Below, in pieces: positions 6,843 to 44,294 of a stretch of 44,294 bases of DNA (its first letter is position 1; each line of letters starts with the position of its first letter). The stretch spans positions 1 through 44,294 of the forward strand of contig CAZPNW010000074.1 in assembly GCA_964588175.1 (NCBI GenBank), in the 5' to 3' direction. A program made the position numbers and the translations under genes. The stretch comes from an uncultured Planctomycetales bacterium (GTDB lineage Bacteria > Omnitrophota > Gorgyraeia > Gygaellales > Profunditerraquicolaceae). The notes below the pieces were generated by a model. It had not been told where the DNA came from, ran no database searches, and worked only from the letters and a program-made list of their open reading frames with translations.

Positions 6843-7451
6843 TTAGCTTTGGTTAATGTTTTCAAGCATTTTTTTACATGCGGCCTGGATAAATTGGACT
6901 GTTTGCGGTGTCAATACCAGGTAAAAACATCCGGTGATCTTCTGTTGTGGTTCTTCAAAGGTCGTTTCTATAAAGAGTACATATTCATTATCAGAGGCGA
7001 GTATCATGTTTAAGATCTGCTTGATCGGGCCGTTTACTAAGGTCGGGATAGAAGGAATGATCAGGGATTGCAAAAGAATACTTAAGGCTCCGACAAAAGA
7101 AGAAATTACCACATTTCCCACTTCTTTCATCAATGACATCCCCATTTCAGTGAATACGCCGCATTGTTTTTCGTCGGGCTTCCTGCCGTAGCACATGTCG
7201 ATCAATTTATATGCGCTTTTTTCGTCAAGAAGGAATAAGATCTTCCCTTCGAGCCCGGTCAGCAGGTTCCCTAAGATACTGACCACGATCTGGTTTTCGC
7301 TAAAACGGTTCAGGATGTCAGCGCTGGAGACAAACGTTAAGGCGGGGACTTTAAGGTTTATTTTTCGCCCGATTATTTCTGAAAGGGCAATACTTCCCTG
7401 GCCGGCTGAAATCGTGCCCATCTCCCTTAAAATGTCCATTTCGTCTTTCAT
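6843..7451 (-). CDS. cheC: CheC/CheX-family chemotaxis phosphatase
   Basis: [24 protein letters not shown] and [18 protein letters not shown] match the duplicated CheC E-x2-N helices. The first site is degenerate (EMGT). It lies 2 nt upstream of the REC-GGDEF gene on the same strand. Confidence 0.65.
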
Positions 7452-13451: not shown

Positions 13452-13596
13452 TATGCAAGGAGGGAGAAAGGAGGTCGTCGTAGGCGAATCAGAAAAACTT
13501 AAAAATAAATTATAGGGCCGTGTTTTTTATAAAGGACTTCTTAAGCCCTTTGTAAATATTTTTTCAATGGAACGGCAATTAATAAGGAGGAGAGAT

Positions 13597-14754
13597 ATGA
13601 AAAAGTTGGTGCTGGTGGTAATGGCGGTCTGTGCCTGCTTATCCTTAGCTTTCGCTCAGGAAAAAGCTGCCGATAAGGCTGCCGCGGTAAAAGAGTTTGT
13701 TGTTTATTCGGATAAAGGAGCGCGTGACAATCATTATATCCCTTCGGGATGGATGGGTGATTACGGCGATATTAAACTTAATGATCAGGCGACTGATAAG
13801 CCTTATTCCGGAACTACCTGTTTGCAGTTTATTTATTCCGCAAAGAAAACGCAAGGCCAGGGATGGGCGGGTGTTTATTGGCAGAATCCCGCGAATAACT
13901 GGGGTACTAAAAAAGGCGGGTTTGACCTGACCGGTATGACTAAGCTTACCTTCTGGGCGCGCGGTGCCAAAGGTGGAGAAGTTCTGCAGAAGGTTGTTGT
14001 CGGCGGTATAAAAGGGACGTACCCGGATTCTACATCGGTAGAATTCGGCCCGATTGAATTGACTGATAACTGGAAACAATTTACCGTTAATGTGGCGGGG
14101 AAAGACCTTTCGTATATAAACGGCGGTTTTGGCTGGGTTGCGACAAATGATCTTTCTCCTGAAGGCTGTACTTTTTATCTGGATGATATTAAGTTTGAAG
14201 CCGATCCTACCATGAAACCTGCGAGTAAGAAGCAGGAAGCAGTGCCGTTTTATATTTACTCAGACCGGTCCTCGGCGAATAATCATTTTATTCCTTCGGG
14301 CTGGATGGGTGATTACGGCGATTTAAAATATGATGGTGCTTCCAAAGAAGACCCGTATTTAGGCGATACCTGTATTAAGATCCTGTACAGCGGTAAGGCG
14401 ACTCAAGGAGCCCGTTGGGCAGGTATCTACTGGCAGAATCCCGCGAATAACTGGGGTACTGTTGACGGAGGGTTTGACCTTTCTAAAGCTACCAAATTCA
14501 CTTTTTGGGCACGGGGTGCCAAGGGCGGTGAAAGGATCGAAGAATTCAAAGTCGGCGGCATTATGGGAGAATATTCCGACTCAGATACTGCCAGTATCGG
14601 CCCGGTCATCCTGAATAAGGAATGGACACAATACACTATCGACTTAAAAGGAAAAGACCTTTCTTTTATTATCGGTGGGTTTGCGTGGGCGACCAACATC
14701 GATGTGAATCCGGAAGGCGCTGTTCTTTATCTGGATGAACTCAAATACGAATAA
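13597..14754 (+). CDS. Secreted protein made of two tandem ~168-aa homologous domains (carbohydrate-binding-like)
   Basis: AAGGAGGAG RBS before ATG 13597. Signal peptide. Two repeats share HYIPSGWMGDYGD...YWQNPANNWGT..GGFDL...FWARGAKGGE...LDD/ELK(F/Y)E. Confidence 0.7.
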   Translation: MKKLVLVVMAVCACLSLAFAQEKAADKAAAVKEFVVYSDKGARDNHYIPSGWMGDYGDIKLNDQATDKPYSGTTCLQFIYSAKKTQGQGWAGVYWQNPANNWGTKKGGFDLTGMTKLTFWARGAKGGEVLQKVVVGGIKGTYPDSTSVEFGPIELTDNWKQFTVNVAGKDLSYINGGFGWVATNDLSPEGCTFYLDDIKFEADPTMKPASKKQEAVPFYIYSDRSSANNHFIPSGWMGDYGDLKYDGASKEDPYLGDTCIKILYSGKATQGARWAGIYWQNPANNWGTVDGGFDLSKATKFTFWARGAKGGERIEEFKVGGIMGEYSDSDTASIGPVILNKEWTQYTIDLKGKDLSFIIGGFAWATNIDVNPEGAVLYLDELKYE

Positions 14755-14802
14755 TAATCCTTTGGCGCCTGTTTTTCATAGCCGGAGAGAAAAGCGTTAA
14801 TT

Positions 14803-14847
14803 CACTTGAGTCCGTTATCAAAATGATAACGGACTCAAGTGTTTTTT
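14803..14847 (+). terminator. Strong rho-independent terminator
   Basis: Perfect 18-bp stem CACTTGAGTCCGTTATCA (14803-14820) / TGATAACGGACTCAAGTG (14824-14841), 3-nt loop, then TTTTTT (14842-14847). Confidence 0.9.
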
Positions 14848-14868
14848 AAACAATCCCGAGAAATCATA

Positions 14869-16119
14869 ATGAAAAAACAAAGTATTCTTTATTCCGTTAT
14901 CATTCTTTCGCTTTTCTTAATGGGGATGAGCGCGAAAATCAATCCCCGTGTCTATATAAAACAGTTTAAAAACGGCCATTATCAATTGATCGTTAATAAA
15001 AAACCCTATCTTATCAAGGGCGTTTGTTATAATCCTATTCCTATCGGAGAAACCTACAATTATGATTGGTGGTCTAATCAGTATAAACCGTGGCTTGTCG
15101 ACGGGAAACTTATGAAAGCCATGGGCGTTAATACCGTCAGGTTTTACCAGCCTGGCGAGAATCCTGATGCGGTCAAGGCTGTTATCAAGGATTTGTATGA
15201 GCAATATGGGATCCGTTCAGTCATGGGCCATTGGCTTGGGTTTTGGGAATATCCGTGCCCTTTTTACGGCGATAAGGCGTTCCAGGATAAAGTCAGAAAA
15301 GAAGTCCTGGAAATGGTAAACGCCTATAAGGATGAGCCGGGGATCCTGATGTGGGTCTTAGGAAATGAGAATAACTATTCATGTTTGAACCTCGTTCATC
15401 CCTGGTCGAATGATGAGATCGATAAAGAACCCGATCCGCAGAAACAAAAGAATATGCGCGCGCGGATCTATTATTCTTTTGTGAATGACCTGGCCAAAGA
15501 GATACACGCGATAGACCCGCATCATCCGGTAGCATTAGGCAATGGGGAGCTTATCGGCTTAGAGGTTGCCAATGAGGTCTGCCGGGAGGTAGATCTTGTC
15601 GCCTGTATTATTTATCGCGGTAAGACTTTTGGGAATTTATTTAACTCTTTAAAATTGACTTTTGATAAGCCGCTTTTCCTCTCGGAATTCGGCGCGGATT
15701 GTTATGACGCTTTTGCGAAGAAAGAAGACCAGAATATGCAGGCGTTCTTTATGGAGTCGCAATGGCGGCAGATTTACCTCAATGTGGCAAAGAGCCCTGA
15801 GGGGCCGGGTAATTGCATCGGCGGGACCATGTTTGAGTGGAATGATGAGTGGTGGAAGCATAATGAATACAGCCCTGACGGATGGGGCGTACATGATACG
15901 GAATCAAACTGGTCCAACGGCAGCTATTACTTTGATATTAAGGCGGAAAGAAATATGAACATGAATGAAGAATGGTTTGGTATTGTCGCTTTGTCCTCAG
16001 AGGAGAAAGAGGAAGGATTGGATAAGCGGATACCTCGTAAGGCATATTATGTTATCCGGGAATTCTGGAAGAAACCTGTTCTTGAAATTAAAAGTATTCG
16101 GGGGAAAAAGGCAAAATGA
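14869..16119 (+). CDS. Clan GH-A glycoside hydrolase, paralog of the catalytic part of 11058-13451
   Basis: Signal peptide. Motifs YLIKGVCYNP, MGVNTVRFYQP, WVLGNENNYS, PLFLSEFGADCY, GGTMFEWNDEWWKH in the same order as the upstream paralog. The GTG 14839 start is rejected because it lies inside the terminator stem. Confidence 0.7.
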   Translation: MKKQSILYSVIILSLFLMGMSAKINPRVYIKQFKNGHYQLIVNKKPYLIKGVCYNPIPIGETYNYDWWSNQYKPWLVDGKLMKAMGVNTVRFYQPGENPDAVKAVIKDLYEQYGIRSVMGHWLGFWEYPCPFYGDKAFQDKVRKEVLEMVNAYKDEPGILMWVLGNENNYSCLNLVHPWSNDEIDKEPDPQKQKNMRARIYYSFVNDLAKEIHAIDPHHPVALGNGELIGLEVANEVCREVDLVACIIYRGKTFGNLFNSLKLTFDKPLFLSEFGADCYDAFAKKEDQNMQAFFMESQWRQIYLNVAKSPEGPGNCIGGTMFEWNDEWWKHNEYSPDGWGVHDTESNWSNGSYYFDIKAERNMNMNEEWFGIVALSSEEKEEGLDKRIPRKAYYVIREFWKKPVLEIKSIRGKKAK

Positions 16120-17765
16120 AAAAACATACGAGTGATTCGAGACAAAGATTTATTGAAAGATCCCGCCTGGGTTTTATTATCTGTGTTTTGTGGGTTTGCG
16201 CATCGGCAATAGTGCCGCCTGCGCGCGCGCAGCAGAATGATACGGCGGTGGCCCTGACAAAAGAGATCATGGATGCCAAGACCCCCGAGAGCCTTTTTAA
16301 GAGTTTTGAGGCTTTAGCAAGCCAATACGCCGAGAGCCATGCCTATTCTGATTTTGTGGTGTTCTTAAGGTCTTTAGCCCAGAAAAAACAATCACTTGAT
16401 GCGTATATTCATTATCATATCGCTTTCACCCGCTATCAACAACTGAAATACCTTGAAGAAACGCTCGCCTGGGATGAATATTTCAGCCAAGGCAATACCT
16501 ATCGGGAAGATCTTATGTTGAGCGCGCAGAAAGTTATTGAGGTGGCTTCCGTTAACGATTCCCTGAGAGTTTATGCCCGGTTGGTCCTCTGGCAGTTCCA
16601 TTATGACCAGCAGGACGCGTTTCATGAACAGGCGCTTGTTGATTTGATGAATGATGTTGCCGCGTACGCAGGAGGCGCGCCGGATATGCGGCCGGTCAGG
16701 AAAGCTGCGGATACCTTGTTATCGTACGGCCAGAAAGGTAAGTCGCGCGAATTATATAAGCTATATGTGGAAAAAACCATTGCTACGGTCGCCAAAACAG
16801 ATGAGCTTATGACGGCAGCGCTTGATTTTTATAAACAAAACAATTCCGAACTGGCAGAGCTTATGTTTGACGCGTACATCGGGCGGATCACGAATGCCCT
16901 GCCGAAAGAAGAAGCGATCCCTCTTTTAAGGAAAATAGCTTTCTTATTTGTTTATAGAACTCAAGCCGGTTTTCAGGATTTATTATACGCTGAAAGTGTT
17001 TTCGCAAAGATGTCCGCTCTCGGCGGTAAAGATATATTTGATGCCGAATTGCTTTATCAGCGGGCATTGAACGTTGAGAAAGCAAAAGAGTACGCATTAG
17101 CGCGAGCCTATTATGAAGAATTAGTCCAGCGGTATCCCGATGCGCCGTATATTGATGCGGCATGTTTTAAGCTGGGGGCCATGTGCCTGTATGCTTTCCG
17201 GGATCTCAAGACGGGTAAAGAGTACCTTCAGAAAACCGCTCAAAAAGGGTCCGGCAATCCTTATTGCCTGGCGAGCCTTTATCAGCTGGGGCTTTTAAGC
17301 CAATGGGAAGAGGACTATGATGCGGCAAAGAAATATTACGCGGATTGCCTGGAGAAAGCAAAGGGTGATTTCCCGCAGACAGAGTCTATGATACATGAGC
17401 GTATGAAAGAGATCGAGGGGCAGAAACCCCTTGAATATAACCTGAAAACATTTTTAGATACGTCATTAAAACAAGGGTATGAAAATTTCGAAATGAATAA
17501 GCTGGAATTAAAAGTTTCACCGTTAACAGCCCAAAAGGATTCTTCGGTGGCAGTAAGCGCTATGCCCTTCCTGTCGGAAAGCGGCTGCATGCAGGTTTCT
17601 GTCGAATACCTCTGGTCAGGCAACCTCGGTAAAGAATTGCCTGCTTCCGAGCAAGCTTCTTTTCAAACCTCTTATAATGAACTTGGGCCTCAACTGATCA
17701 ATGTGGTCGCGGTTACTGCAAGCGGCATTATTGACCGATGTTTTGTTATCGTTGATATTGAATAA
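16116..17765 (+). CDS. Secreted TPR-repeat protein with a beta-rich C-terminal domain
   Basis: ATGA start/stop overlap with the preceding gene. Signal peptide ...PPARAQQ. Repeated TPR-like A..YY....Y helices, e.g. EYALARAYYEELVQRYPDAPYIDAACFKLG. Confidence 0.6.
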   Translation: MKKHTSDSRQRFIERSRLGFIICVLWVCASAIVPPARAQQNDTAVALTKEIMDAKTPESLFKSFEALASQYAESHAYSDFVVFLRSLAQKKQSLDAYIHYHIAFTRYQQLKYLEETLAWDEYFSQGNTYREDLMLSAQKVIEVASVNDSLRVYARLVLWQFHYDQQDAFHEQALVDLMNDVAAYAGGAPDMRPVRKAADTLLSYGQKGKSRELYKLYVEKTIATVAKTDELMTAALDFYKQNNSELAELMFDAYIGRITNALPKEEAIPLLRKIAFLFVYRTQAGFQDLLYAESVFAKMSALGGKDIFDAELLYQRALNVEKAKEYALARAYYEELVQRYPDAPYIDAACFKLGAMCLYAFRDLKTGKEYLQKTAQKGSGNPYCLASLYQLGLLSQWEEDYDAAKKYYADCLEKAKGDFPQTESMIHERMKEIEGQKPLEYNLKTFLDTSLKQGYENFEMNKLELKVSPLTAQKDSSVAVSAMPFLSESGCMQVSVEYLWSGNLGKELPASEQASFQTSYNELGPQLINVVAVTASGIIDRCFVIVDIE

Positions 17766-28892: not shown

Positions 28893-28918
28893 GGTGCATA
28901 CGCGGATAGATAGAAAAA

Positions 28919-28990
28919 GCTGGCGAGAGGAATTGAACCTCCGACCCGCGCTTTACGAAAGCGCTGCTCTACCAACTGAGCTACGCCAGC
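28919..28990 (-). tRNA. tRNA-Thr (anticodon CGT), CCA not encoded
   Basis: Reverse complement GCTGGCGTAGCTCAGTTGGTAGAGCAGCGCTTTCGTAAAGCGCGGGTCGGAGGTTCAATTCCTCTCGCCAGC folds as a 72-nt cloverleaf with anticodon loop TTCGTAA. Confidence 0.9.
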
Positions 28991-29000
28991 GATTTTAATA

Positions 29001-29028
29001 ATTATACCAATTTTTTCATAATAGTCAA
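29001..29028 (-). promoter_or_regulatory. Sigma70-like promoter of tRNA-Thr
   Basis: On the minus strand: TTGACT (29028-29023), 16-nt spacer, TATAAT (29006-29001), about 10 nt before the mature tRNA 5' end. Confidence 0.6.
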
Positions 29029-29245
29029 TGTTTGGCTGCGGGAAAGCTTATGGGGTTTTAAAGCCCGGTTTTCCCGCTGCCCGGGGTTACCGGTACCCCA
29101 GTGCCCCAGCGTTTTAGTCACAGGTCACATGACACAATGACACAAGCCACAGGACACAGGTCACACGTAGTCCATGGTCCACGGTCCATAGTTAAGGAAA
29201 ACCCAGAGGAACCGGAAAGCCAGGGCTAGGTGATCAGGGGATCTG

Positions 29246-29432
29246 GTGAACGGGTGGCTTGGACTGTTTACGAGCGGGGCATAAAGGCAAGCCTGCCTGA
29301 CGGCAGTCAGGGAGCGGGCACGGATGCCCCTCGTTATACGAAGTCGGGCAGAGCGACGCAGCCGACCTGAGTGCAGCCCCGCCACGTCGGGGCGGGGCAA
29401 ACCTGCCTGACGGCAGTCAGGGAGCCGTTCAC
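29246..29432 (-). ncRNA. Candidate structured RNA core of unknown family (strand inferred, not proven)
   Basis: Closing helix GTGAACGG (29246-29253) / CCGTTCAC (29425-29432). Internal helices at 29270-29282/29324-29334, 29343-29349/29361-29366 and 29376-29383/29391-29398. Exact 24-nt duplicate CCTGCCTGACGGCAGTCAGGGAGC at 29292-29315 and 29402-29425. One compensatory base-pair change relative to the copy at 44262-44294. Confidence 0.4.
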
Positions 29433-29514
29433 TAATAAAGACACTAGGTCTCATGTCGCAAGTCACAAGTAGTTCATGGACTGTTGACTATTTGCGACAT
29501 GTGACCTTTTATGT

Positions 29515-29616
29515 AATGAAGCTGGCGGTTTTGTCGCTTCGCTCCACCGGGATACTCTCAATGCTCAAGCTGCTTTGCCTAAAATCTACATTCGCTCAAA
29601 AACCGCCAGCTTCATT
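29515..29616. other. Perfect 18-bp inverted repeat enclosing a 66-nt loop
   Basis: AATGAAGCTGGCGGTTTT (29515-29532) is the exact reverse complement of AAAACCGCCAGCTTCATT (29599-29616). Confidence 0.8.
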
Positions 29617-29904
29617 TATAGCAATCCATCTACTTGTATCCTGTAACTGTGACTCTTTACTCCTGATCTCCCAATTCCCTGATACCCTGCGACTTGTGTC
29701 TTGTGACCTGTGACTATTGACCGTGGACTATGGACCATAGACTATGGACTAACTTGCGGTTTTAAGAGTATATGACAGAAAGAGGCAAGGCTAGGGCTTG
29801 AATAGGGTTAAGTTATTTTTAATGTTTTTAGTAAGAAAAGCGCGGCAATAGTGCTTATTAACCAGGCATTTATGAAAAATCAGTAGCTTACTTATTAAAA
29901 ACAC

Positions 29905-29933
29905 TTGACTTAAGGTGCTATTGGTAGTATAAA
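29905..29933 (+). promoter_or_regulatory. Sigma70-like promoter of the ROK regulator gene
   Basis: TTGACT (29905-29910), 17-nt spacer, TATAAA (29928-29933), about 50 nt upstream of ATG 29982. Confidence 0.5.
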
Positions 29934-29981
29934 TAAATCCAATAATAATTTTTTTCTAGAGCCACGGGGAAAGGCATTGAC

Positions 29982-31214
29982 ATGAAGTTCAATAATTTTC
30001 AGAAAGAGGAATTTTCGGAAAAAGAAAAACGAAATATTGACATTTTTGAGATCCTGCGCAGGCTCGGGCCTATCAGCCGGCCGGAAATCTCTAAGGAGAT
30101 CGGCATAAACGTAGTAACCATATCTAATTATATTGATGAATTCATAAAATATAATCTCGTGTATGAAAAAGAATTAGACCGTTCTGAAGGCGGCAGGCGC
30201 CCGACACTCCTGGACCTGAATCCTCAAGGAGGCTATGTCATCGGCGTAGGCTTAAACCTTATGAATATTGTCGGTGTCTTGATCGATTTAAAAGGCAATA
30301 TTATTACTAAAACTCAGATCGCCCGCCCCCGCCCATCGGTAAAAGAGATCACGGAGTGCCTCTTGCAGATCATTCGCGAGATCATCAGGCGTTCTAAAGA
30401 ATATACTTCTCAGATCAAAGGGATCGGCATCGGCATCGCCGGCTTGATCAATAAAAAAGACGGCTCTATCCATTGGCCGCAAAAGATGGACCATTATTAC
30501 ACATATGCGTCGGTAGACTTGCCGTTAAAAGATTTGATCGAGCGGGAATTCAATCTTCCGGCGATGATAGAGAACGATGCCACCAGCGCCTGTTTTGGAG
30601 AATATTGGCTGGGTTCGGGTTTCGGGCTGAAGAATGTTATTTATATGTTTTCCGGAGTCGGCTGCGGGATGATGGTCAACGGCGAGATCTATCGGGGCAC
30701 CCAGGGGTACGCAGGCGAGGTGTCTATTTATAATTATAAGGAACAAGACGCGTTTAATTGCGAATTAGGCAATAGTTGTTTCATGAAACGCTGGGAAATA
30801 GACCTGGGGATTGTTGAAGATGTTAAATCTTTGATGAATAAAGACAAGCAGGGGGCTGATAGGTTCCTGAAATTGACTTCAGCCACTCTTGATAATGTTG
30901 ACTTAAAAAGCGTTTTTATCGCTGCACGCGCTAAAGACCCGATCGCTTGTTCCGCGTTAGACCTGGCCGCCAAGCGCCTGGGGATCAAGATCGCCTCCAT
31001 TGTTAATTTCCTGAATCCTGAGATGGTTGTTATCGGCGGCGGTTTAGAAGAGGCGGGAGACGATTTCCTTAATAAAGTTACTTCAACGGTCAAAGAGTGG
31101 GCGTTCAGGGAGATCGTTGAAGATTTAAAAATCGTTTATTCTCAGTTGAGGGAGAATTCCGTTGCCTTGGGCGCGGCAAGCTTGGTTATGCAGCGGGTGT
31201 TCGCGAAATTATAA
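29982..31214 (+). CDS. ROK-family transcriptional regulator (NagC/XylR-like, N-terminal wHTH plus sugar-kinase fold)
   Basis: N-terminal HTH ILRRLGPISRPEISKEIGINVVTISNYIDEF. ROK core GIGIGIAGLINKKDG...ENDATSACFGE...GVGCGMMVNGEIYRG..GYAGE. Confidence 0.8.
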   Translation: MKFNNFQKEEFSEKEKRNIDIFEILRRLGPISRPEISKEIGINVVTISNYIDEFIKYNLVYEKELDRSEGGRRPTLLDLNPQGGYVIGVGLNLMNIVGVLIDLKGNIITKTQIARPRPSVKEITECLLQIIREIIRRSKEYTSQIKGIGIGIAGLINKKDGSIHWPQKMDHYYTYASVDLPLKDLIEREFNLPAMIENDATSACFGEYWLGSGFGLKNVIYMFSGVGCGMMVNGEIYRGTQGYAGEVSIYNYKEQDAFNCELGNSCFMKRWEIDLGIVEDVKSLMNKDKQGADRFLKLTSATLDNVDLKSVFIAARAKDPIACSALDLAAKRLGIKIASIVNFLNPEMVVIGGGLEEAGDDFLNKVTSTVKEWAFREIVEDLKIVYSQLRENSVALGAASLVMQRVFAKL

Positions 31215-37558: not shown

Positions 37559-37680
37559 GTAGTTAGGTTATGGTTAAGCAGTTAGTTTAGTGGTTAGGTA
37601 AAGTAGTTTGGTTCTAAAACCCAATTACTTTACCCAACAACCAAACAAATAACTTGACCCTAACCTAACTACCATTTTTT
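37559..37680 (+). terminator. Very long (~115 nt) imperfect hairpin with strand-asymmetric arms followed by a T-run; probable terminator or REP-like element
   Basis: The G/T/A-only left arm GTAGTTAGGTTATGGTTAAG...GGTAAAGTAGTTTGG (37559-37611) pairs with the A/C/T-only right arm CCAATTACTTTACC...CCCTAACCTAACTAC (37621-37672). ATTTTTT follows at 37674-37680. Confidence 0.6.
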
Positions 37681-42649: not shown

Positions 42650-43849
42650 TTGATATTCTTAGCCGGCAGCCAAATTAAAGAAATTACCAGGATCTTAGAG
42701 AAAGTTCTAACCGGAGATTATCATGTCCGGATCCCTGCGTATTACGCTTCTGTTGCGATAAAACGATTAGTACATGTTTTAAATGAACTTCTGGCAAAAG
42801 TAGAATCTCATGTCGGTCTGCTTGAAAAAGAGAACAGGCAGCATCAAGCTATTCTGGGTAATATGGCAGAAGCGGTGATCGCGGTTGATAAAGATACCCG
42901 GATCATTTCAGTTAATCCTTCGGGAGAAAAGATGCTGAATATCCCGGGGCGCCAGATCGTCGGTAAATTGTTCCTTGAGGTGTTCCCTAATAATGATATT
43001 GGAGAGATCATAACGGATGTCTTACGCAGCGGCAAGTTCCTGCCGAAAGAGTTGAGTGTCATTTGGCCCCTGCAAAAGACATTCCAGGTGAACGCGGCCC
43101 CGTTATTTGAGAACAGCGCGGTAAACGGCTGTGTCCTGGTGATCCATGATATTACCGAGATGAGGAGGCTGGAGAAAGTGCGCTCTGATTTTGTGGCAAA
43201 TGTCTCCCATGAATTAAAGACACCGCTTACCTCGATCAAAGGTTTTGTCGAGACGCTTTTAGAAGGAGCCATCGATGATAAAGAAGAAAGCCGGAACTTC
43301 TTAAAGATCGTTCAGGAGCATGCGGAACGTTTAGACAGGCTGACCAGCGATTTATTAAGCCTCTCGAGCCTGGAGTCGCGCCAGGCGGAAATAAAGAAAG
43401 AAAAGGTCGCGGTCAGGCAACTTGTTGAACAGATCGCCTCAGGATTCAGCGTTCAGTTAAAAAAGAAGTCTTTGCGATTCGAAAATAAAGTGTCTGATGA
43501 TGTTTCTGCCCATGCGGATAAGAACAGGATAGAACAGGTATTCACCAATCTTATCGATAATGCTATTAAATTTAACCGTGAAAGCGGTTTGGTAGAAGTC
43601 TCTGCGCTTATGCAGGGAGGGTTTGTGAAGTTTATCGTTAAGGATACCGGCAGCGGTATTCCTGAAAAAGATATTCCCCGTATCTTTGAACGTTTTTACC
43701 GCGTTGATAAAGGGCGTTCCCGCGAACTCGGAGGAACCGGCCTTGGCCTTTCTATCGTTAAGCACATAATCGAATCGCACGACGGAAGTGTAGGGGTGGT
43801 AAGCACCGAAGGCCTGGGTTCAGAGTTTTGGTTTACCCTGAGCGTCTGA
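42650..43849 (+). CDS. phoR: PhoR-like sensor histidine kinase without transmembrane region (HAMP-like, PAS, HisKA, HATPase)
   Basis: TTG start 3 nt after phoB. DFVANVSHELKTPLTSIKGF H-box. N, G1 and G2 boxes (NLIDNAIKF, DTGSGIP, GGTGLGLSIVKH). RFYRVDKGRSR is typical of PhoR. Confidence 0.7.
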   Translation: MIFLAGSQIKEITRILEKVLTGDYHVRIPAYYASVAIKRLVHVLNELLAKVESHVGLLEKENRQHQAILGNMAEAVIAVDKDTRIISVNPSGEKMLNIPGRQIVGKLFLEVFPNNDIGEIITDVLRSGKFLPKELSVIWPLQKTFQVNAAPLFENSAVNGCVLVIHDITEMRRLEKVRSDFVANVSHELKTPLTSIKGFVETLLEGAIDDKEESRNFLKIVQEHAERLDRLTSDLLSLSSLESRQAEIKKEKVAVRQLVEQIASGFSVQLKKKSLRFENKVSDDVSAHADKNRIEQVFTNLIDNAIKFNRESGLVEVSALMQGGFVKFIVKDTGSGIPEKDIPRIFERFYRVDKGRSRELGGTGLGLSIVKHIIESHDGSVGVVSTEGLGSEFWFTLSV

Positions 43850-43945
43850 TAGCTTTAGTGTTGGTTAAGTCGAAGGGTTTACCCTGAGCGCCTGATAGCT
43901 TTACCTGTTAATTCAGTCGAAGGGCTTACCCTGAGCGTGTAGCTT
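43831..43945 (+). repeat. Three tandem copies (46-47-bp period) of the last codons and stop of phoR
   Basis: GTTTACCCTGAGCGTCTGATAGCTTTA (43831-43857, includes the phoR stop), GTTTACCCTGAGCGCCTGATAGCTTTA (43877-43903) and GCTTACCCTGAGCGTGTAGCTT (43924-43945). The last two are each preceded by GTCGAAGG. Confidence 0.8.
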
Positions 43946-43993
43946 CCTAATTTCGAAATCTCCGGATATCCCATTTTCCTCTAATTTTATGAT

Positions 43994-44178
43994 GTAACTT
44001 TACGGTCATGCTTACGCGCACTGAAAACTTTCGCCGTGCACTGCGGTTTACGGCTCGTTTACGCTATAGACTTACGTAAAGAGCGCGCTTCAACTCGCCG
44101 TAATCCCTTGTGCACTCCAGGTAAAACTCAGTGCCGAAAGTTTTCTAATGTGCGCTCCAGCATAACCGTAAAGTTTAC
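43994..44178. repeat. Long imperfect hairpin (~40-bp stem) built from reiterated TTACG/CGTAA motifs
   Basis: GTAACTTTACGGTCATGCT...GAAAACTTTCG (43994-44033) against CGAAAGTTTTC...AGCATAACCGTAAAGTTTAC (44135-44178). TTACG occurs at 44000, 44012, 44048, 44059 and 44072; CGTAA at 44075, 44099 and 44167. Confidence 0.7.
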
Positions 44179-44181
44179 CAC

Positions 44182-44294
44182 CAACCATGGACTATCGACC
44201 ATTGACCATCGACTCTTTGCGACATGGGACCTGCGACTTGTGTCCGGTTAATGTCCTTATGAGTGAACGGGTCCCTGCCTACCGGCAGGCAGGC
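44182..44294 (+). repeat. Second copy (inverted relative to the first, truncated by the window end) of the 29117-29753 element: heptad GAC block plus the start of the structured core
   Basis: GAC at 44190, 44197, 44204, 44211, then 44221, 44228, 44235. GCGACATGGGACCT...GAGTGAACGGGTCCCTGCCTACCGGCAGGCAGG aligns with the reverse complement of 29401-29500. Confidence 0.7.

Follow-up and report, generated by a model that had tools for sequence, protein, structure and literature searches.

Small dispersed repeats (SDRs), hairpin repeats of 21-27 nt, reportedly insert into heptamer arrays and into each other, according to Elhai et al. in 2008. In cyanobacteria, short tandemly repeated repetitive sequences (STRRs) with a 7-bp unit can fold into hairpins; no function is known for them (PMC2670836). 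REPINs, hairpins built from repetitive extragenic palindromic (REP) sequences, are mobile DNA in which compensatory changes are common; they fold as single-stranded DNA (ssDNA) or in mRNA and cluster by insertion into or beside each other (PMC3116915). The 5′ end of REP palindromes is marked by a conserved tetranucleotide, GTAG or CGTC (PMC3733652). Here we describe an 856-nt non-coding insertion between the divergent promoters of a tRNA-Thr gene and a ROK-family regulator gene in contig CAZPNW010000074.1, from an uncultured bacterium that the names of its ROK homologues place in Candidatus Omnitrophota. The whole stretch analysed, 44,294 nt, is referred to as the window, and related contigs or loci carry L numbers. 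The insertion is probably, at a probability we put near 0.65, a clade-specific nested cluster of mobile palindromic repeats resembling REPINs and bacterial interspersed mosaic elements (BIMEs) on the one hand and STRRs and SDRs on the other, and not a single gene. An earlier reading of the same DNA, the original prediction in what follows, had seen here one structured element of about 0.63 kb at 29117-29753, loosely reminiscent of large RNAs such as ROOL and GOLLD.

Results

Three relatives (L022/L023, L024 and L025) keep the same gene order, Rnf operon-MFS-tRNA-Thr followed by ROK-coiled coil-LacI-RNR. Their ROK proteins are 86, 82 and 79% identical to that of the window and their DNA is ~70-77% identical. 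The gap from the tRNA to the ROK promoter measures 10 nt in L022, 25-45 nt in L024 and L025, and 856 nt in the window. Window positions 29000-29028 correspond to L022 5860-5888 and positions 29885-29948 to L022 5899-5962; the window therefore carries an 856-nt insertion at 29029-29884, larger than the unit first proposed and composite. The closest relative, L034 (86% nucleotide identity over 11 kb), has a 340-nt skeleton at the ROK site. It aligns with window 28900-29129, 29438-29507 and 29733-29999 at 85, 94 and 91% identity, the last of these segments corresponding to L034 7202-7470. Block 1 (Table 1) is bounded by CACA-type heptamers and, relative to L034, sits in the CACA array; in L034 window position 29129 is joined to 29438 through a single AAGTCACA heptamer. 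At the position of block 2 the relative has 23 nt (7179-7201).

A second spacer behaves in the same way. Between phoR and pstS the window and its continuation L015 carry a core of 91 nt, L033 (82% nucleotide identity) has an orthologous core of 228 nt (L033:3456-3683), and L032 (86%) has arrays and a different hairpin family with no core. The orthologous spacers of close relatives thus carry different module sets, and rapid gain and loss follows. Parts of the insertion are present or absent independently of each other in relatives at 82-86% nucleotide identity.

An exact look-up of the ROK protein retrieved five metagenome contigs (L001-L005) from the same population. One of them, L002, matches 1500 nt across the element at 99.9% identity, and the element of the window is therefore not an assembly artefact. 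An exact look-up of the PhoB protein retrieved no record. Three others (L001, L004 and L005) begin inside the element, and L003 changes to a different sequence within it. Contigs also end inside family members elsewhere: L009, L015, L020 and the window contig do so, as do L001, L004 and L005. The 71-nt core found in L003 is truly located 80 nt upstream of purH, as seen on the minus strand of L020; it follows that L003 is chimeric, with its junction within the repeat. We note that in L003 (Ga0105099_10012353; L003:1-724 compared with L020 and with the window from 29392 onward) the purH-locus copy is fused to the ROK-locus copy inside the common CCCGTTCACTAATAAA.

Three kinds of module make up the insertion: degenerate 7-nt arrays in inverted orientation, which form the arms of long hairpins; small GC-rich palindromic cassettes; and larger hairpin modules. 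The arrays that flank the core (NGNCACA, NNGTCCA and NNNNCCC) follow a conserved order and return as reverse complements on the opposite side. Inverted repeat I3 pairs 29115-29137 with 29694-29716, 556 nt apart, at 22 of 23 positions. Matching at a lag of 7 nt reaches 0.38 in the left flank (29030-29244; z = 4.2) and 0.42 in the right flank (29434-29753; z = 6.7) against 0.25 expected. By eye, heptamer positions 4-7 (CACA, TCCA, CCC) seem conserved and positions 1-3 variable, the measured quantity being the overall 7-nt periodicity. In the 44-kb window 7-nt arrays occur only at these elements; homologous CACA-type arrays with differing unit numbers are found in L015, L017, L009 and L032. Some units of the CCC-type arrays read CCCCAGT (window 29093-29109; L003:72-110), which we take to be the heptamer sequence of cyanobacterial STRR1.

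Such arrays could belong to a regulatory or architectural region acting at the DNA level, in which they would bind a nucleoid-associated or sequence-specific protein while the palindromes, as sites for gyrase or cruciform extrusion, evened out supercoiling from one divergent promoter to the other. REP and BIME elements bind gyrase and integration host factor (IHF). The location between divergent promoters and the apparent conservation of positions 4-7 (again by eye) would suit this role. We nevertheless consider it very improbable: the same modules stand in very different contexts and are dispensable in close relatives, and the arrays are homologous copies with whole-unit insertions and deletions, which looks like slippage and not like independently maintained binding sites.

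The cores are bounded by (A/G)TGAACGGG...CCCGTTCA and measure 71, 79, 91, 120, 189 or 228 nt. Within them cassettes are stacked in variable number inside an inverted repeat of 9-11 bp (GTGAACGGG...CCCGTTCAC). One cassette is the 'A arm' (GGCTTGGACTGTTTACGAGCGGGGCA), in some copies paired with an inverted partner; another is the 20-nt B hairpin, CCTGCCTG-N-CGG-N-AG-N-CAGG, of which a core holds one to three; a third, an ~85-nt module with hairpin H3, occurs in long forms only. Other hairpins can take the place of a cassette; in L033, for instance, the position of the window's first B hairpin is occupied by CCCCGTTAGAAA-ACGTGG-TTTCTAACGGGG. The closing repeat is missing at the 3′ end of copy L009a and missing altogether in L017b. 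At least 13 instances of the B hairpin are present in ~100 kb of Omnitrophota sequence, all of them intergenic, and solitary ones form the tip of a long AT-rich hairpin (L033:8074-8093, L032:11597-11612). A motif related to hairpin 1, CAGGTCTCATGTCGCAA, recurs beside other copies.

Several features of the original prediction hold up on closer inspection. The core at 29246-29432 has a GC content of 66%, higher than that of the window (45%) or of the remaining spacer (34-56%). It is closed by the 8-bp helix GTGAACGG/CCGTTCAC and contains the exact duplication of 29292-29315 at 29402-29425. From the MFS gene to ROK there are 1089 nt with short open reading frames (ORFs) only, including the two named earlier, read-throughs of 101 aa (29161-29466, minus strand) and 86 aa (29453-29713, plus strand). 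Neither can be coding because the core lengths among copies differ by non-multiples of three, and the statement that the spacer lacks a credible ORF stands. An integrase, transposase or reverse transcriptase is likewise absent from the 44-kb window. The homologous inverted sequence announced at the window end is real, at 44195-44294; it extends into contig L015:1-430 with 99% identity over the last 100 nt of the window. In L015 the core of this copy 2 is followed by heptamer arrays and the pstS operon, and thus lies upstream of pstS.

The claim of a multi-copy family is also correct, with cores at no fewer than seven unrelated housekeeping loci. Metagenomes were scanned with a strict core pattern (19-20 fixed bases), by which more diverged relatives in other taxa would be missed. 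Six of the 15 loci returned are true members from the same sediment populations: L009 (two copies), L010, L015, L017 (two copies) and L020. The other nine fall by chance in coding sequence, on unrelated contigs that are mostly GC-rich. Among 185,579 GTDB species genomes the pattern gave one match, in a GAF-domain coding region of an Anaerolineae metagenome-assembled genome, which is attributed to chance. Viral contigs (two patterns), plasmids and phages gave nothing, or only chance matches in coding DNA. The cores neighbour ROK, pstS, purH and a GATase gene, RlpA-like and radical-SAM genes, a GT4 glycosyltransferase gene together with that of UDP-GlcNAc 2-epimerase, and a gene that has no Pfam match and is glutamate-synthase-like by eye. 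A tRNA gene is present at one locus only, so that the adjacency to tRNA-Thr, offered earlier as a clue, is coincidental. Relative to the neighbouring genes about half of the cores are sense and half antisense, and many copies lie between co-directional genes.

Other known kinds of element were considered for these sequences and set aside. An invertible promoter switch (inverton) does not fit, the core orientation being fixed relative to the CACA array, the GTCCA array and the YAATAARGACA flanks in the copies with both flanks readable (window copies 1 and 2, L017a, L009b and L033). A retron msr-msd would call for an adjoining reverse transcriptase; the neighbours are housekeeping genes. An integron attC site is contradicted by the lack of an integrase and by the 3′ end GTTCACT, which does not fit GTTRRRY. 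A riboswitch or leader was suggested by the copy 80 nt upstream of purH, but contexts are unrelated, orientation is mixed and Rfam gives no match.

The inverted repeats are strong (23, 17 and 11 nt) and would be compatible with a classical miniature inverted-repeat transposable element (MITE) or a nest of them, in which short terminal inverted repeats (TIRs) would be the substrate of a DDE transposase whose gene lies elsewhere, such as a TA-duplicating enzyme of the IS630/Tc1 type. Candidate TIRs are the 23-nt pair 29115-29137/29694-29716, the 11-nt pair AGTGAACGGGT/ACCCGTTCACT and the 17-nt arms of 29516-29615. TA dinucleotides flank GTCACAGG...CCTGTGAC, and the family is multi-copy and confined to intergenic DNA. 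However, no fixed length or ends are common to the copies, the supposed TIRs are low-complexity heptamer arrays whose unit number varies, and the outer repeat is already present in L034, which lacks the inner blocks. A 2-bp TA match carries little weight, the other flank match is an imperfect heptamer, and neither the window nor ~100 kb of related loci yielded a cognate transposase. A classical MITE is decidedly unlikely. The original prediction had held that an explanation of the insertion sequence (IS) or MITE type would tell against it; the explanation favoured here is of that kind, although no database match stands behind it.

The core folds better than chance would predict, with z = -5.0 for the plus and -3.0 for the minus strand. 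Over the whole insertion neither strand has the advantage (z = -5.4 and -5.6), and the comparison of G-U with A-C mismatches gave no strand bias. The minimum-free-energy fold of the window core was projected onto an alignment of the four long cores. In these 82% of cells pair, and seven pairs change on both sides compared with 1.9 in shuffles, most of this signal coming from single hairpins. The window core has ten helices; only two of the four long cores can form helix 3, helix 6 and the outer portion of helix 7, and the short cores are devoid of them entirely. Hairpin H3 (helix 8) has 97% of its cells paired; four of its pairs change from C-G to U-A in L033 only (CCCC/GGGG to UUUU/AAAA), and the differences among the remaining copies fall in the loop. 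The B hairpin, in ten distinct instances and in the register of the original prediction, has 95% of cells paired. Its covarying pair is C-G in five, A-U in four and mismatched in one. The overlapping alternative register is 91% paired, with a central mismatch in five of the ten. The A-T to C-G exchange reported earlier is therefore real across these instances, but the alternative register, said to be broken by it, is weakened and not abolished.

Hairpin complementarity is thus maintained, as the original prediction had it. Imperfect palindromes are hotspots of template-switch mutation (PMC7202029). The simplest account of the four-pair change in H3, confined as it is to one sequence, would be a single templated event and not four separately selected substitutions. 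Each of the two B-hairpin variants recurs in several copies and may trace to a single event. Both points weaken the case for RNA, as does the like behaviour of REPINs, which are mobile DNA (PMC3116915).

A role at the RNA level resembling that of REP sequences would make the hairpins, wherever they are co-transcribed with adjoining genes, bidirectional terminators or attenuators, barriers to 3′-exonucleases that stabilise mRNA, or insulators, kept by selection on the host. Consistent with this are the single hairpins preserved through double-sided changes, the many copies between co-directional genes, a related long hairpin at 37559-37672 that is followed by a run of T, and the transcript-stability roles suggested for STRR hairpins (PMC2670836). 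The insertion at ROK, however, is flanked by the two divergent promoters and lies upstream of each, with the tRNA promoter's -35 box on one side and the UP-like stretch and promoter of ROK on the other, and is therefore probably transcribed from neither of the known promoters; it has no internal promoter or terminator. In addition, the core is missing from the corresponding loci of the closest relatives, orientation shows no preference, and no U-tract follows the core in either sense. We regard host-selected RNA function as unlikely.

Searches of Rfam 15 at the gathering score returned the window's two tRNAs, and eight related loci added one tRNA only. At E <= 10, region 28990-29990 gave only miRNA and snoRNA matches at noise level and 43800-44294 gave nothing. 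The earlier view that no known RNA family applies is therefore upheld for every copy. The view that the region is one ornate orphan RNA gene of ~0.6 kb, like ROOL or GOLLD and with several paralogous copies, draws on the strong structure, the absence of an ORF, the tRNA beside one copy and some compensatory pairs. Yet half of it is missing from the 86%-identical relative and all of it from the 75%-identical relatives, several helices form in only half of the long cores, and the strands of the whole insertion fold equally well. The region carries no promoter or terminator of its own, and the other copies have sub-modules only, away from tRNAs. A nested mosaic with no conserved architecture and with mixed orientation replaces the single large RNA, which we hold to be scarcely probable.

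The coordinates of the features are collected in Table 1.

Table 1 Features of the insertion, its flanks and copy 2 (window positions)
Feature	Position	Strand	Remarks
tRNA-Thr(CGT) and promoter	28918-29028	-	left boundary, outside the element; kept in relatives
tRNA-Thr(CGT)	28918-28990	-	left neighbour
tRNA-Thr promoter, TTGACT-16-TATAAT	29028-29001	-	-35 box borders the insertion
Whole lineage-specific non-coding insertion	29029-29884		856 nt between divergent tRNA-Thr and ROK promoters
CCC-type degenerate heptamer array, with CCCCAGT units	29067-29109	+	read from sequence
CACA-type heptamer array (NGNCACA, 7 units)	29115-29167	+	left arm of long-range inverted repeat
Block 1: CACA and GTCCA heptamer arrays, inverted CCC array, GC-rich core	29130-29437	+	missing from L034
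GTCCA-type heptamer array (NNGTCCA, 3 units)	29168-29191	+	sequence reading, lag-7 periodicity
CCC-type heptamer array, inverted; linker to core	29192-29244	-	read from sequence
GC-rich core in its 189-nt long form, closed by GTGAACGG(G)/CCGTTCAC	29245-29433	+	66% GC; fold z = -5.0 (+) and -3.0 (-)
B hairpin cassette, copy one (CCTGCCTGACGGCAGTCAGG + GAGC)	29292-29315	+	exact 24-nt duplicate of 29402-29425
H3 hairpin, GCCCCGCC-ACGTCGG-GGCGGGGC	29376-29398	+	inside ~85-nt module restricted to long-form cores
B hairpin cassette, copy two	29402-29425	+	exact duplicate of 29292-29315
Hairpin 1, 15-bp arms GGTCTCATGTCGCAA/TTGCGACATGTGACC	29447-29506		ancestral skeleton; 94% identical to L034 7110-7178
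Block 2: 100-nt hairpin (29516-29615, perfect 17-bp arms), CCC and TGTG arrays	29508-29732		missing from L034
TGTG-type and TGGAC-type arrays	29690-29753	+	reverse complements of left-hand arrays
AT-rich unique segment of insertion	29754-29884		common to L034 only; missing from L022, L024, L025
ROK promoter, TTGACT-N17-TATAAA	29905-29933	+	right boundary, outside the element; kept in L022, L024, L025, L034
ROK-family regulator gene	29982-31214	+	right neighbour
Copy 2	43996-44294	-	cut by contig end; 'TTACG' long-hairpin module (43996-44175), heptamer arrays, start of 91-nt inverted core

Some observations concern the flanks of the insertion and other repeats of the window. An AT-rich AGCTTACTTATTAAAAA precedes the ROK promoter (the two together at 29885-29933) and is found again at L022:5899-5950 and in L024, L025 and L034. 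This stretch with its promoter is kept across Omnitrophota relatives at 70-86% DNA identity, and AGCTTACTTATTAAAAA could be an UP element or an operator for the ROK regulator. On the other side, the public call for the MFS transporter gene of L034 (L034:5620-7071, 483 aa) overruns the tRNA-Thr gene (6909-6981). Its start is probably over-extended, judging by the window homologue of 420 aa.

The long-hairpin module of copy 2, ~180 nt rich in TTACG units, has a 90%-identical copy at the purH locus (L020/L003). A change from GTGCAC/GTGCAC to GTGCGC/GCGCAC within it may be compensatory; the two copies gave different predicted folds. At 43813-43937 lies a 46-nt tandem repeat whose first unit is formed by the last codons and the stop codon of phoR (GGTTTACCCTGAGCG-YCTGATAG). 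The window has three units, L033 (3269-3324) two and L032 (11181-11433) about six; the 3′ end of phoR has therefore been copied repeatedly into the spacer.

The hairpin at 37559-37672, in the apgM-mnmG spacer, represents a second repeat family. It has arms of 55 nt, one made almost only of G, T and A and the other only of C, A and T. Homologues are located at L017:2335-2455, L032:11460-11740 and L032:20848-20950, and in its interior the hairpin is unlike the orthologous spacer in the relative at 86% identity. Remote from these elements, the window has a 200-nt internal direct repeat (13729-13928 and 14281-14480, 72% identity) inside the ORF at 13567-14754, one of three adjoining large ORFs (13567-17765) that are without a Pfam match.

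Discussion

The elements are multi-copy and mosaic, differ in presence between relatives, preserve their hairpins and show no bias of strand or orientation. The best-supported reading is that the cluster is DNA which spreads and turns over at permissive intergenic sites, neither a large RNA gene nor a cis-regulator tied to one pathway. Its modules appear to have built up recently between the two promoters, within one narrow group of uncultured Omnitrophota.

For the mobilisation and the lack of a cellular function we infer the following. The cluster would be selfish or near-neutral mobile DNA, whose blocks come and go at heptamer arrays and hairpin tips. The modules could move through a single-stranded hairpin intermediate and an enzyme encoded elsewhere, as with REPINs and their REP-associated tyrosine transposases (RAYTs), or through template switching and recombination between dispersed arrays. 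Complementarity of the arms would be kept by a need for the hairpin in propagation, by template-switch correction that restores imperfect palindromes, or by both. Copies would persist where they do no harm, which here means upstream of both -35 boxes. Any effect on RNA where a copy is co-transcribed, as terminator or stabiliser, would be secondary.

Several points weigh against a nested cluster of mobile repeats. Neither the window nor the ~100 kb of related loci encodes a transposase, RAYT/HUH enzyme, integrase or reverse transcriptase. The edges of block 1 are imperfect heptamers only (AGGTCACA ... AAGACACT), with no clean terminal inverted repeat and target duplication. In three of the four long copies one sense of the core is favoured by 10-16 kcal/mol, a weak hint of a preferred strand, and single hairpins covary; the cassettes may therefore have an RNA or ssDNA function. 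The sample is also small, ~10 copies, all from short-read metagenome assemblies, and part of the apparent mosaicism (L009b against L010, and L003) may be assembly chimerism. The key results on presence and absence, however, come from contigs 10 to 435 kb long, and the window sequence used for them was recovered in a second, independent assembly.

We also considered that these Omnitrophota harbour an undescribed self-propagating system of their clade. In one version no conventional transposase would be needed, and the cassettes would enter 7-nt arrays and the tips of hairpins either by template switching primed by microhomology in the arrays or through an unrecognised enzyme acting on ssDNA hairpins. 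In another the core (70-230 nt) would itself be a mobile, strand-specific structured RNA. Both versions are retained because the core folds better in one sense and the hairpins covary; taken together they seem quite unlikely.

If the insertion is indeed a nested cluster of mobile hairpin repeats, a candidate giant RNA is removed and replaced by the first description of dense, fast-evolving nested hairpin and heptamer repeats in Omnitrophota. In the literature searched we found no report of such elements in these ultra-small uncultured bacteria. The family breaks and chimerises metagenome assemblies, which is a warning both for assembly and for screens for new non-coding RNAs. It inflates intergenic spacers three- to four-fold, and the presence or absence of its modules serves as a marker that distinguishes genomes as close as 82-86% identity. 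Small mobile palindromes would here accompany 7-nt arrays in a further, independent case beyond the cyanobacteria and the Proteobacteria, which bears on the means of movement of REPIN- and SDR-like elements and on the reason for the conservation of their hairpins.

Comparison with known systems

The large RNAs ROOL and GOLLD share with the insertion a size class of ~0.6 kb, strong predicted structure, the lack of an ORF and, for one copy, a place beside a tRNA. They differ in that the insertion matches no covariance model, has no conserved architecture and is absent or fragmentary in close relatives. Its strands fold symmetrically over the whole length, and the family is restricted to one narrow clade. 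Nor is the unit inherited or moved whole, as L034 lacks 29130-29437 and 29508-29732 and keeps the rest.

MITEs (Correia/NEMIS, ERIC, RUP and BOX) are similar in being non-coding, intergenic and multi-copy, with inverted ends, hairpin potential and a tendency to break assemblies; elements of the BOX type are likewise modular. Unlike them, the cluster has no fixed length, and no parent IS element was found; its inverted repeats of 23, 17 and 11 nt have only a TA dinucleotide or an imperfect heptamer as flank match.

The likeness to REP, BIME and REPIN elements, which belong to Proteobacteria and are mobilised by RAYTs, is closer in kind: short, imperfect GC-rich extragenic palindromes (20-40 nt for REPs, 20 nt for the B hairpin) occur in many copies, join into larger units that form hairpins and build mosaic nested clusters, compensatory changes keep the hairpin, and folding is possible as ssDNA or as RNA on either strand. 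The B hairpin, however, lacks a terminal GTAG or CGTC; its flanks read GCAAG, GCAAA or GACAG, followed by CCTGCC. No RAYT gene occurs in the ~44 kb of this genome or in ~100 kb of relatives. The elements described here sit in degenerate heptamer arrays, which REPs do not, and their cores of 71-228 nt stand against fixed REP doublets and belong to a different phylum.

With the STRRs the insertion has in common tandem 7-nt intergenic repeats able to form hairpins, and with the STRR/SDR system as a whole it has small hairpins nested in arrays and in each other (block 1, the B hairpins at hairpin tips, the cassette swap in L033). The differences are that the arrays are degenerate by eye and laid out as inverted arms, that the cassettes are unrelated in sequence and stacked in a closing inverted repeat, and that the host is a non-photosynthetic member of the Omnitrophota. 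The cluster is not a demonstrated member of either the REP/REPIN or the STRR/SDR group; the likeness to STRRs and SDRs drawn here is one of organisation, with the CCCCAGT unit as the only resemblance in sequence.

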